Positions 18,030 through 57,465 of a stretch of DNA of 64,000 nucleotides are shown here, one piece after another. The stretch lies in the IMG/VR virus record IMGVR_UViG_3300033067_001807, positions 1 to 64,000 of that record; one strand, given 5' to 3'. A program made the position numbers and the translations under genes. The notes under the pieces were generated by a model that was given only the letters and a program-made list of their open reading frames with translations, made no database searches and was not told the origin of the DNA. The stretch is from a virus. Lineage: Duplodnaviria; Caudoviricetes. The stretch's first letter is position 1. Each line of letters opens with the position of its first letter.

Positions 18030-18067
18030 TCTTTATATCTTAATTTATTTTATATATATTCATTTTA

Positions 18068-39169: not shown

Positions 39170-39186
39170 AATATATTTATCTGTTT

Positions 39187-39260
39187 AATTATAGTGTAAA
39201 TATAAACAAAAAACCCGAGACTAAAAAATCTCGGGTAAATTATTTCAAAAAGTTATTAAC
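39187..39260 (-). promoter_or_regulatory. Conserved intergenic element, copy 1: GTTAATAAC / hairpin / T-run / TATATTTACACTATAATTA
   Basis: Hairpin ACCCGAGA..TCTCGGGT; flanks near-identical to 53477-53551 and 57389-57465. Confidence 0.8.
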
Positions 39261-39262
39261 GC

Positions 39263-40453
39263 CTATAGTTTCAAGAAAACTTTTCTAGTGTCAACATCTA
39301 TTCTTGTGATTTGAACGGTAATTGGGCTGTTTTTTGTAAGTGAATCTAATTCTATTCCTTCAGGTAATTCTGAGATATGCAATAATCCTACAATTCCATC
39401 CCCAATGTCAACAAATACTCCATAATCTTTAACAGATTTAATTGTACCTGTAACTTCTACTGGAAAAGATTTATACTTTCCTGCAACTTCTTTCCATGGA
39501 TCTATGGTTTCAGTATATTCGATTTGCGTTAATGTAATTTTAGTATCACTAATAATCTCTTTAACTTTAAATTCAATTACATCACCTGGATTAATTTCTC
39601 TCGCTTTGTGTTTTTTAGCCATTTCAGGAGATAAATCGTTGGCATGAATCATACCAGTTAAACATCCATCAAACTCAACAAATACACCATATTTGGCAGA
39701 ACCTGTAACATTTCCAGTTTTTGTTTCTCCAATACTATTTTTAAGCTCTTCAACTTTACTTGGAATCATCGCCTGTAAATATTTTCTATGCGATACAATG
39801 ACGGTTCCTCTTTCCGGTGAGTAACTCATAGGCACAACATACATTTGTGTATTTAAAATAGATTCAAACTCTGCAAGTTTATTAATTCCTGCAAGTGAAC
39901 CTGGCATGAAACAATCGATACCTTGTACATTTACAAAATAACCTCCATTTGGAATCATTCCAGTCACGGTTCCAATATATGCAGTATTTTGATTTTCAGC
40001 AGATGCTAATATTTCTTTAAGTATTGCAGCTTTAATTCCAGCTTCAACCGAACCTAAAATAAATCCTTTATTGTTTCTACCTGTTGTAATTTCAACATCT
40101 ACCCTTTGGCCTGGTATTAATTTAGCCTTTGAAATAACTGACTCTCTTGACATATTTACATATATCATTTCTTTGTGTCCAATATCGATTGAAGCCCATT
40201 CTTGGTCAACTGAATATACAGTTCCATTATGCGTTTCTCCGGCATTTACAGAATATACTAAGTTTGCATCTGTTAATACGTTTTCCATTAGGTCATAAAG
40301 TTCTTGAGCATACGGCTCTCTTGAATATACTTTATGTCCACCCTTTGTTTTTACGTGTGGATTCGATTTTCTACTTATTGATGGGCAATCAGATACATAA
40401 GCATCCCAATCAAATTTTGGATTTCCATCAATTGTAATTGTGTTTTTTGACAT
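39263..40453 (-). CDS. rpsA: Ribosomal protein bS1 homologue (four S1 domains, Bacteroidota-type N-terminus)
   Basis: FDWDAY N-terminal motif; four S1 repeats (VQGIDCFMPGS, KYGVFVEF..GMIH..DL, DPW..V, DYGVFVDI..GLLHISEL). Confidence 0.85.
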   Translation of the reverse strand: MSKNTITIDGNPKFDWDAYVSDCPSISRKSNPHVKTKGGHKVYSREPYAQELYDLMENVLTDANLVYSVNAGETHNGTVYSVDQEWASIDIGHKEMIYVNMSRESVISKAKLIPGQRVDVEITTGRNNKGFILGSVEAGIKAAILKEILASAENQNTAYIGTVTGMIPNGGYFVNVQGIDCFMPGSLAGINKLAEFESILNTQMYVVPMSYSPERGTVIVSHRKYLQAMIPSKVEELKNSIGETKTGNVTGSAKYGVFVEFDGCLTGMIHANDLSPEMAKKHKAREINPGDVIEFKVKEIISDTKITLTQIEYTETIDPWKEVAGKYKSFPVEVTGTIKSVKDYGVFVDIGDGIVGLLHISELPEGIELDSLTKNSPITVQITRIDVDTRKVFLKL

Positions 40454-40501
40454 TTTTTTTTAGTTTAAGTGTTAATATTAATAGTTTATATATACGTTTT
40501 A

Positions 40502-53451: not shown

Positions 53452-53476
53452 GGTGTTTGTTTTAAATTGATGTTTT

Positions 53477-53551
53477 AATTATAGTGTAAATATAAACAAA
53501 AAAAGCCAAACAAAAAATGTTTGGCTAATTATTTTCTAAAAAGTTATTAAC
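53477..53551 (-). promoter_or_regulatory. Conserved intergenic element, copy 2
   Basis: Hairpin AGCCAAACA..TGTTTGGCT with the same flanks as 39187-39260. Confidence 0.8.
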
Positions 53552-53554
53552 AAT

Positions 53555-55300: not shown

Positions 55301-55558
55301 TTAGTCGCCTGCCATTATCACAAGCTCCTTTAACTTTTTAAGAGTTTCACACTTTTCATATTCCTCTAGTTCTACGAAATATTCTATAAGAAGATCTATA
55401 AATCCACTTCGTTGTCCTATTCCATGTGGAATATCGATTGTGTTTTTACTATCTTGGTATACGATAAATCTATTAACCGTTTTTGTAAAATTTCGAGTTA
55501 TTATATAGTAGCTGGACCTCATTAAAGAGTCTCTCTCCTCTTTAGTAATATCTTCCAT
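55301..55558 (-). CDS. Small UVR-motif (UvrB/UvrC coiled-coil) protein
   Basis: YFVELEEYEKCETLKKL. Confidence 0.7.
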   Translation of the reverse strand: MEDITKEERDSLMRSSYYIITRNFTKTVNRFIVYQDSKNTIDIPHGIGQRSGFIDLLIEYFVELEEYEKCETLKKLKELVIMAGD

Positions 55559-55656
55559 CTGTTAATTTTATTTTTATTACGTCTAATTTGACTGATTAGA
55601 TTATATATTTAGATGGACTTCCGAGAATATGTCATGTTGACAAAAAGGTTAGTATA

Positions 55657-55836
55657 TTATAAATCTCTCGATTGTTTATATCTTGCCTTTATAATCTTTT
55701 TTCTTTTTGATATTGATGGTTTTTCATAAGACGTATTGTCGCGTAATTCAGATAGCTGTTTAGTTGCAATTACCTTTTGCTTCAATTGTTTTAGTGCCCT
55801 TTCTATGTTTCCTTTTTCTACATTTATAATTAACAT
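55657..55836 (-). CDS. rpsU: Ribosomal protein bS21, Bacteroidota-type; not in ORF track
   Basis: Hand translation: MLIINVEKGNIERALKQLKQKVIATKQLSELRDNTSYEKPSISKRKKIIKARYKQSRDL (59 aa), with bS21 hallmarks MLII.V, I.RALK and Y.KPS..R. Confidence 0.9.
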   Translation of the reverse strand: MLIINVEKGNIERALKQLKQKVIATKQLSELRDNTSYEKPSISKRKKIIKARYKQSRDL

Positions 55837-56081
55837 GATAGTTTATCAATTATTTTTTTAAGTTCTGTACATTTTTCATACTCTTCTCTATCTTTAAAAA
55901 AATCAAGTACGATTTGAACACCTTCTATTTTAACGGAGGCTGGGGCATCATGATTCAGTGCTCCCATACTTTTCTCAATAATTGATTTATAAATAATTTC
56001 CATCATGTCTTCCTTGGAAGCATTCTGTAATTTTTTTATAAAGTCTGTTTCCTTGTTGTCGTATTCATCTAAATCATCCAT
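55830..56081 (-). CDS. Small UVR-motif protein
   Basis: FFKDREEYEKCTELKKI; start moved to MDDLDE, which overlaps the dnaJ stop. Confidence 0.7.
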   Translation of the reverse strand: MDDLDEYDNKETDFIKKLQNASKEDMMEIIYKSIIEKSMGALNHDAPASVKIEGVQIVLDFFKDREEYEKCTELKKIIDKLSC

Positions 56082-56868
56082 TAGAGTCTTTAATCTTTTT
56101 AAGTAATTCAATTTGATTTTCTGTTAAACTAATAGGCAACGTTCTAAGCTTTACCATAAGATTACCATATCCATTTGAGTTATATATTGGCATTCCTTTG
56201 CCAACTACTCTAAGTATTTTTGAATCATGTGAACCTTCGGGCACCTTAATTTTTACAGCATGCACCTTTGTTTTAACTTCAAACTCTCCCCCTAGTAACA
56301 TATCAATCCAACTAAGTGAAAGATCTACATAAATATCTGCACCATTTACTATAAGGTCGATGTCTTGTATAACATTTATAGTTAATATTATGTCGCCTGG
56401 TCTGGCACTTTTGTTGATTGGATGGGGTTGGCCTTTTTCTTTGATTTTAAGTTTCGTGCCATTCGGAATTCCCTTAGGTATATTAATATTAAATCCACCA
56501 GTGCCGATATCGAGGTATCTTCTCGTTCCTTCATAACTTTCTTCTATTGTTATATTTATTGCCACTCGTACGTCAAATCCTCTAACTTCCTCATTAAATG
56601 ATTGGTCAAATGCTGTTGCAAAATCATATCTATTAAATATGTCTTTCCACGCATCGTCAATGTTAAATGATCGATTTCCACTAGTGTCGTGTTTCCTTCT
56701 ACGTTCAGGGTCTCCTAAAACCTCATATGCTTCTACTACCTTTTTAAATTGGGTTTCGTCTCCTCCTGTTTTATCAGGGTGGTATTGTTTTGCAAGTTGC
56801 CTATATGATTTTTTAATTTCGTCCTGTGTCGCATTTCTAGAAACGTTTAAGGTTTCATAATAATTCAT
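56074..56868 (-). CDS. dnaJ: DnaJ/CbpA-type co-chaperone (no zinc finger)
   Basis: J domain with YHPDK; C-terminal INIPKG, GKGMP and GNLMV. Confidence 0.9.
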   Translation of the reverse strand: MNYYETLNVSRNATQDEIKKSYRQLAKQYHPDKTGGDETQFKKVVEAYEVLGDPERRRKHDTSGNRSFNIDDAWKDIFNRYDFATAFDQSFNEEVRGFDVRVAINITIEESYEGTRRYLDIGTGGFNINIPKGIPNGTKLKIKEKGQPHPINKSARPGDIILTINVIQDIDLIVNGADIYVDLSLSWIDMLLGGEFEVKTKVHAVKIKVPEGSHDSKILRVVGKGMPIYNSNGYGNLMVKLRTLPISLTENQIELLKKIKDSNG

Positions 56869-57090: not shown

Positions 57091-57375
57091 TTATATTTGT
57101 TCTAAAATATCTCTAATTCTAGCACATTTTTCATACTCTTCTACTTCAACAAATATTTCTAACATTTGATTAAGAGTTTTTGAAAGAGATTCAATATCAA
57201 ACCCATTGCGCTTCATTGTTTTAATATCTATTCCGTTTTCTACAATCATGTCATAGTTTTCATTCGCTAACTTCATTTTTAGCTCATACATCATTTCTTC
57301 CATTAAAGCTTCTCTTTTCATAGTTGTAATTTCGTCATCTTCCTCAAAAAGGTCATTAAAATTAAATTCGTCCAT
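57091..57375 (-). CDS. Small UVR-motif protein
   Basis: IFVEVEEYEKCARIRDIL; start moved to MDEFNF, downstream of element copy 3. Confidence 0.7.
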   Translation of the reverse strand: MDEFNFNDLFEEDDEITTMKREALMEEMMYELKMKLANENYDMIVENGIDIKTMKRNGFDIESLSKTLNQMLEIFVEVEEYEKCARIRDILEQI

Positions 57376-57388
57376 GTTGTATATTTTA

Positions 57389-57465
57389 TAATTATAGTGT
57401 AAATATAAATAAAAAATGCCAAACAAAAAAATATTTGGCAATTTATTTACAAAAAAGTTATTAAT
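57389..57465 (-). promoter_or_regulatory. Conserved intergenic element, copy 3
   Basis: Hairpin TGCCAAA..TTTGGCA with the same flanks. Confidence 0.75.

Follow-up and report, generated by a model that had tools for sequence, protein, structure and literature searches.

A ribosomal protein bS21 gene lacking a Shine-Dalgarno sequence in a fragment of an uncultured T4-like jumbo phage

Of all ribosomal proteins, bS21 is the one most commonly encoded by viruses. Phage-encoded bS21 has been published previously (Mizuno 2019), one phage bS21 is able to enter Escherichia coli ribosomes (PMC6375957), and viral genomes with several ribosomal proteins have also been described (PMC13157829). The closest described systems come from two surveys. 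In the freshwater myoviruses of Bacteroidetes hosts reported by Chen et al. 2022 (PMC9723584), the phage bS21 retains Tyr54, is expressed late, and diverges at the positions corresponding to R21, F23, D25, and T28 of the Flavobacterium johnsoniae protein. In the huge phages of Al-Shayeb et al. 2020 (PMC7162821), rpS1 and rpS21 are both reported; one model presented there has the two proteins redirecting initiation, and rpS1-bearing phages rarely have Shine-Dalgarno (SD) sequences. On the cellular side, the rpsU gene of Flavobacteriia is autoregulated via an extended SD, and ribosomes that lack bS21, or that carry a C-terminally truncated bS21, initiate faster on rpsU mRNA and more slowly on SD-less mRNAs (McNutt et al. 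2023, PMC9976891, who also speculated that phages encoding bS21 might turn a protease on the host bS21). In the F. johnsoniae ribosome, Tyr54 is stacked against A1534 and contributes to holding the anti-SD tail in place, Ile55 makes a contact, and a low-charge C-terminal tail of bS21 is typical of the Bacteroidota phylum (Jha 2021, PMC7797042; structure 7JIL). An earlier sequence-only reading of the DNA considered here had invoked these three lines of work (Jha 2021, McNutt 2023, and Chen 2022), and what it attributed to them is what the papers say.

Phage bS21 with the C-terminal tyrosine is known from Bacteroidota phages (Chen 2022), and the present gene is a further example. It shares with the Chen-type phages the phage bS21 clade, an aromatic residue at the Tyr54 site, a diverged first helix, and a large genome that encodes Clp protease and chaperones. 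It differs from them in being shorter (59 aa), with a truncated and very basic tail, and in its setting: here bS21 is codirectional with its neighbors in a block that runs dnaJ, 83-aa gene, bS21, 85-aa gene, phoH, and rnhB, whereas contigs with bS21 proteins about 50% identical to ours (L011-L019) have the layout of Chen et al., namely, terminase, portal, reversed bS21, prohead protease, and major capsid. The present lineage also has a bS1-like gene, of which PMC9723584 makes no mention. Many of the rpS21 proteins of Al-Shayeb et al. have an N-terminal extension that this bS21 lacks, and the bS1 proteins of LR745206.1 and LR756502.1 are just 36 to 43% identical to the bS1-like protein described below. 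With cellular rpsU of Flavobacteriia the phage gene has in common its family, the A1534-stacking Tyr, the KPS motif, and its length class; it differs in the lack of an extended SD, in a Lys in place of Ile55, in a tail charge of +7 versus about +2, and in a deletion next to Gly9.

The bS21 gene and its neighborhood

The window (the entire 64,000-nucleotide stretch analyzed) opens an IMG/VR virus record that is 81.5 kb long and has a CheckV completeness of 27%, which puts the whole genome at about 300 kb. Its G+C content is 32%, and the minus strand carries 77 of its 82 ORFs. Tail fiber and baseplate genes are found in the rest of the window, and a ClpP gene lies beyond it, at contig positions 72456-72983. 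The contig is a fragment of a T4-like, SD-less jumbo phage of about 300 kb, uncultured and of marine origin. The Flavobacteriaceae or their close relatives are the most likely hosts, as indicated by the neighbors of its bS21 in phylogenetic trees together with the SD-less, low-GC genome.

The 59-aa ORF that the sequence-only reading had taken for bS21 is, on profile and alignment evidence, clearly a member of that family with the Bacteroidia-type tyrosine. It matches Pfam PF01165 (Ribosomal_S21; E of 2.5e-13, 49.9 bits against a cutoff of 27, profile positions 2-54 of 55), the NCBIfam equivalog model TIGR00030 (43.1 bits against a cutoff of 28.95), and PHROG 21469, “ribosomal protein S21” (E of 1.5e-6). 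The best solved relatives are chains 9i5v_9 (E of 9e-10) and 7jil_z of F. johnsoniae (E of 9e-8); in both alignments, Tyr53 of the phage motif KARY faces Tyr54 (KAIY and KAAY), which confirms that the C-terminal tyrosine is kept. The KPS motif (residues 39-41) is also as in cellular bS21, and among the marks of the Bacteroidia type it is the tyrosine that is present, the low-charge tail with Ile55 and the extended SD being absent. An AF2 model built with 12 phage sequences consists of two long helices (residues 11-34 and 40-58; mean pLDDT of 85.7). When Foldseek compared this model with the PDB, no structure matched at an E of 0.001 or better, an isolated two-helix model being uninformative in this respect; the weak rows returned are mitoribosome small-subunit chains.

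The gene had been described as unannotated, which holds for the ORF track then at hand but not for public gene callers, which predict bS21, with a PF01165 tag, on contigs nearly identical to this one. Searching the 59-aa protein by tblastn against 50,697 GenBank phage records yielded nothing at an E of 1e-3, and the protein has no close cultured relative. A word-indexed protein search returned just two near-identical proteins, and relatives are encoded on 15 IMG/VR contigs.

Overlapping cistrons lead from dnaJ through the 83-aa gene to bS21, which closes the series (Table 1); a 94-aa and a 66-aa gene lie upstream of dnaJ. The start of the 83-aa gene, for which an alternative 93-aa reading from the TTG at 56111 is possible, overlaps dnaJ by 8 nt. 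The overlap of the bS21 start with the upstream stop, also seen in the earlier reading, is exact: the ATG (55836-55834) and the TAA (55832-55830) form ATGTTAA, which gives a 7-nt overlap between the two ORFs. Gene order and gene calls are unchanged in near-identical contigs recovered from seven independent sequencing runs, and relatives share both the order and the ATGnTAA overlap.

Table 1. Coordinates of the features at and around the bS21 gene (window positions)
Feature	Position	Strand	Basis or remark
bS21 gene, 59 aa, ATG start	55657..55836	-	Pfam, TIGR00030, PHROG, structure alignments
83-aa gene; TAA overlaps bS21 codons 2-3	55830..56081	-	Near-identical contigs have the 83-aa call
DnaJ-family cochaperone gene (dnaJ)	56074..56868	-	PF00226 and PF01556
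Copy of ATATATAA inside dnaJ	56180..56187	-	Candidate late-type promoter internal to dnaJ, 354 nt upstream of bS21
Intergenic region after bS21	55559..55656	-	ATATATAA at 55601-55608, 42 nt before next gene
85-aa gene, UVR-like C-terminal motif	55301..55558	-	Downstream of bS21; followed by phoH and rnhB (RNase HII)
Hairpin and T-run terminator (putative), then repeat TATATTTACACTATAATTA	57376..57460	-	Head of the 94aa-66aa-dnaJ-83aa-bS21 block
bS1-like gene, 396 aa, three or more S1 domains	39263..40453	-	Pfam S1, 98.9 bits; rpsA models

Two kinds of DNA elements bear on how this block may be transcribed. The segment at 57376-57460 is a probable boundary and promoter heading the 94aa-66aa-dnaJ-83aa-bS21 block. 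Its repeat, TATATTTACACTATAATTA, occurs in three exact copies in the window (39186-39204, 53476-53494, and 57389-57407), each of which follows a hairpin and T-run, the other two lying in the intergenic regions 39170-39262 and 53452-53554; the combination looks like a terminator-promoter unit dividing gene blocks. The second element, ATATATAA, is probably the core of a late-type promoter of the phage, as judged from its placement: 15 of its 23 minus-strand copies in the window lie 3 to 58 nt upstream of a start codon, against an expected 7.7% (p of ~6e-12). Example copies are found at 40486-40493, 55601-55608, and 18050-18057, and the starts that they precede include those of tail fiber genes and the bS1-like gene. 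The only copy upstream of bS21 is the one within dnaJ, where it is inseparable from conserved dnaJ codons (MPIYN). A scan for the sigma-70 consensus found sites no more frequently than in shuffled sequence and is uninformative on promoters.

Three small minus-strand genes (55301-55558, 55830-56081, and 57091-57375) encode proteins that end in a similar motif, EEYEKC..[LI][KR]K, which is weakly UVR-like (Pfam E of 0.083 for one of the three proteins). These proteins are independent of bS21, since they persist in sister phages that lack it.

Shine-Dalgarno absence and a proposed role on the host ribosome

We expressed SD strength as the energy of the duplex between the 3' tail of 16S rRNA and the 25 nt that precede a start codon. 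For the phage bS21 gene this predicted duplex reaches just -2.3 kcal/mol, in line with the absence of an SD from the 15 nt before the ATG, which the sequence-only reading had quoted correctly. The same is true of the genome as a whole, in that an SD-like 4-mer precedes only 6 of the 82 ORFs in the window, leaders being A-rich; because nearly all genes of this phage are without an SD, its absence from bS21 is the genomic default and no special adaptation.

The contrast with the host gene is nonetheless all or none. Cellular Bacteroidota rpsU genes (n = 34) have a median of -13.2 kcal/mol, with 23 of the 34 at -12 kcal/mol or stronger, and these measurements reproduce the extended SD that McNutt et al. 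2023 described, whereas every one of 42 phage bS21 genes (24 of them distinct) is at -4.3 kcal/mol or weaker. As judged from their leaders, the phage copies thus stand uniformly outside the SD-based autoregulation loop. The proposal that the phage gene escapes autoregulation fits this contrast between strong-SD rpsU and 42 of 42 SD-less phage copies, but such an escape would come with a trait that the phage shows genome-wide. A limited literature search, which is weak evidence, found no publication contrasting the SD of host rpsU with that of phage copies.

We consider it reasonably probable, from these sequence comparisons, that the gene encodes a functional bS21 of Bacteroidia type on an SD-less jumbo phage of about 300 kb, and that the protein fills the bS21 site of the host 30S subunit while the anti-SD tail stays sequestered. 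Under this proposal, the phage protein would be made without a need for anti-SD pairing, would enter the loosely held bS21 site of the host 30S, and would keep the anti-SD tail sequestered, such that all ribosomes stay replete with bS21 and initiate best on SD-less mRNAs, those of the phage among them. Since rpsU is translated well only by bS21-free ribosomes, a phage protein filling the site would also shut off the host's bS21 feedback, and the phage copy would progressively replace the host copy; the very basic C-terminal tail may strengthen rRNA binding. The host, the incorporation into ribosomes, and the timing of expression are all inferences. Any benefit of the phage gene would be conditional, because sister phages with the same gene neighborhood do without it.

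An SD-less bS21 is not confined to phages. Many Flavobacteriaceae have a second bS21 copy, and these second copies are the cellular sequences nearest the phage bS21 clade. In a sample of 101 Flavobacteriaceae genomes, about 40 hold two to three bS21 genes, and in 10 of 10 two-copy genomes examined, one copy has an extended SD (about -13.2 kcal/mol), whereas the other is SD-less and keeps Tyr54. The SD-less paralog is of the type KRKHRN[VI]K.., and its chromosomal surroundings (clpX, GH3, and DUF2797) are conserved. It resembles the phage bS21 in lacking an SD, in keeping the Tyr, and in sharing a branch of the tree, and differs in being chromosomal and 64 aa long, with the usual acidic tail; the two proteins share only about 44% identity. 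The lineages that McNutt 2023 (PMC9976891) lists as having additional bS21 copies do not include Bacteroidota by name, and a limited literature search, again weak evidence, found no publication that describes this paralog.

In a maximum-likelihood tree, the 23 distinct phage bS21 sequences form one group with support of 100/98. The grouping of the phage clade with the SD-less paralog, to the exclusion of 42 canonical sequences, has support of 98/94 (SH-aLRT of 92 in a second tree); we treat this link as a lead rather than a result, because the alignment has 64 columns and no outgroup from other phyla. It would be consistent with a speculative scheme, which we regard as possible but rather unlikely, in which the phage clade and the Flavobacteriaceae paralog are one bS21 lineage outside SD autoregulation, the phage gene having been captured from the paralog; both would override the feedback set by bS21 occupancy, and the presence or absence of bS21 in sister phages would mark hosts with or without the paralog. 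If true, paralog and phage bS21 would let host and phage alter ribosome composition at will.

Phage-type SD-less bS21 genes also occur on two contigs of metagenome-assembled genomes, one assigned to Flavobacteriaceae (L031, 24 kb) and one to Bacteroides (L045, 2.8 kb). We rejected them as host genes, since a canonical rpsU is also present in both genomes and neither phage-like copy has an SD. The two contigs probably belong to phages and were binned together with host sequence, which would be a weak clue to host identity.

Divergence of the phage protein

Sequence identity of the phage bS21 is 44 to 52% to the cellular protein of Flavobacteriia and at most 52% to cellular Bacteroidota copies, and the differences include charge and the first helix. 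The tail following KPS has a net charge of +7 in 18 residues; mean tail charges are +5.3 for the 23 distinct phage sequences and +2.5 for 42 canonical cellular Bacteroidota sequences. The N-terminal part of the present protein is less basic (+3 versus about +8), and one residue is deleted after Gly9 relative to cellular references. The aromatic position at the Tyr54 site is occupied in all 23 distinct phage sequences (Y in 18, H in 4, and F in 1), and the residue after the tyrosine, Lys54, replaces Ile55. As read from the alignments, then, the phage bS21 retains the hallmark tyrosine of the anti-SD pocket and not the low-charge tail typical of the phylum, and sequestration of the anti-SD tail could differ because Ile55 is lost and the C-terminal tail is far more basic.

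These features invite a second reading, in which the phage bS21 replaces the host protein and its diverged first helix and basic tail favor phage mRNAs, such that the protein acts as a specificity switch. The substitutions Q20, V22, I23/A24, and Q27 fall at the very positions (F. johnsoniae R21, F23, D25, and T28) noted as divergent by Chen et al., and the deletion after Gly9, the redistribution of basic charge from the N-terminal part to the tail, and a fast amino acid turnover among close strains all point in this direction. Against it, we found no phage-specific leader motif beyond A-richness. We judge a switch of this kind to be unlikely, while noting that it is compatible with site filling by a phage bS21, the two not being mutually exclusive.

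The turnover among close strains is itself ambiguous. Across many related phages bS21 is under purifying selection, with a dN/dS of ~0.10 in the comparison with a 71%-identical copy (L005). Among near-identical strains (L245-L251), however, bS21 has four to five amino acid changes versus zero to one in 432 flanking codons, and dN/dS is elevated; the contrast with the flanks gives a Fisher p of ~2e-4, in a post hoc test on small counts. The changes among these strains are Q17K, T35R, S36A, and R52K, with S43L in one, and they make bS21 a local hot spot of protein change. Such fast change may reflect relaxed constraint as much as adaptation.

Pairing with a bS1-like gene and absence of bS21 from sister phages

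The sequence-only reading had also credited the phage with a bS1, and 15 kb from bS21, in a separate transcription unit, lies a gene for a 396-aa bS1-like protein. The protein is collinear with domains 1-4 of rpsA, its top models being all rpsA (positions 14-341 of 516), and its score against the rpsA equivalog models, below their cutoffs (140 bits against 368 to 918), is as expected of a four-domain form. The ATATATAA copy at 40486-40493 precedes its start by 32 nt.

We found 117 relatives of the bS1-like gene in IMG/VR. Among the 48 contigs with such a relative and a length of 35 kb or more, 26 also have bS21, and in subgroups A and C, bS21 is present in every contig that reaches the expected slot. 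Two published genomes of 635 to 642 kb (LR745206.1 and LR756502.1) likewise have a related S1 protein and bS21, about 19 to 24 kb apart, and the spacing in these and in the paired contigs spans 15 to 24 kb. Co-occurrence of the two proteins had been put forward as the notable part of the locus; the survey and the published huge phages do not support this. The paper of Al-Shayeb et al. does not single out the co-occurrence of rpS1 and rpS21 (PMC7162821), and those of its supplements that we examined contain no table of it.

The pairing is also not obligatory. In a third subgroup, whose bS1-like proteins are 72 to 74% identical to ours, bS21 is not found even at an E of 10, and this includes contigs of 200 to 236 kb that are 74 to 87% complete. 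The bS21-less sisters keep the exonuclease, 94-aa, 66-aa, dnaJ, 83-aa, 85-aa, phoH, and rnhB genes at 55 to 84% identity, and where bS21 would be expected, the alignment has a gap of exactly 177 nt between conserved flanks (L255:13890-14050 and L257, from G026 and G025, compared with window positions 55540-55870). The indel ends exactly at the conserved start of the intergenic region (TATAATATACTAACCTTTTT). In a tree of bS1 proteins built from tblastn-anchored ORFs and rooted on the S1 protein of LR756500.1, two bS21-less lineages are nested among bS21-bearing ones, which makes loss of bS21 the simpler reading. The suggestion that the two proteins form an obligate pair is not supported by these sister lineages, which on this reading lost bS21 alone and kept bS1 and the flanking genes.

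This evidence bears directly on the idea that bS21 and bS1 together, as one module, rebuild the 30S platform and the site of mRNA entry for SD-less phage mRNAs. The presence of both genes on the contig, the conserved pairing with similar spacing, the occupancy of every slot reached in subclades A and C, and the single model for both proteins in Al-Shayeb 2020, with its observation on SDs in rpS1 phages, all speak for such a module. What makes it doubtful, in our estimate still less likely than a specificity switch, is that two nested lineages have bS1 next to a precisely empty bS21 slot (among them the contigs that are 74 to 87% complete), that LR756500.1 and Lak-A2 have an S1 protein alone without bS21, that no S1 protein was found on the 66- to 123-kb contigs of Chen-type phages, whose bS21 is related, and that the two genes here are 15 kb apart in separate transcription units. 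We conclude that the pairing of bS1 and bS21 is real, old (ancestral), and widespread in this phage group, though neither unique nor obligatory, and that the lineage has retained the bS1-like gene independently, as a translation gene in its own right and not as an obligate partner of bS21.

Two further readings fare worse. A role off the ribosome, whether in regulation through RNA binding or in blocking the assembly of host ribosomes, would suit the unusual charge distribution, the position of the gene among chaperone and PhoH genes and away from translation genes, and the nonribosomal bS21 partners reported in other bacteria (PMC12054373), but the full-length profile match and the kept KPS and Tyr point to the ribosomal site, and one phage bS21 has been shown to enter ribosomes (PMC6375957), making such a role very improbable. 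That bS21 is a mere passenger, a recently captured host gene without a role in the phage, is scarcely credible: its loss without visible consequence in sister lineages and its elevated dN/dS among near-identical strains would fit, but the phage clade is old, comprises 23 distinct sequences from several phage lineages in two genomic contexts, has a long-range dN/dS of ~0.1, and is at most 52% identical to any cellular copy.

The bS21 locus falls within an already described class of phage host-takeover genes, of which it is an ordinary representative. The natural existence of bS21-less relatives weakens the reading of bS21 and bS1 as a two-protein module: the two genes are inherited together yet separable. 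The all-or-none SD contrast between cellular rpsU and phage bS21 predicts silencing of rpsU by the phage protein via the feedback loop of the host itself, and sister phages that differ by a 177-nt bS21 cassette within a syntenic block constitute natural knockout controls. Together, the SD contrast, the sister phages, and the separability of the two genes make the role of phage bS21 more testable.
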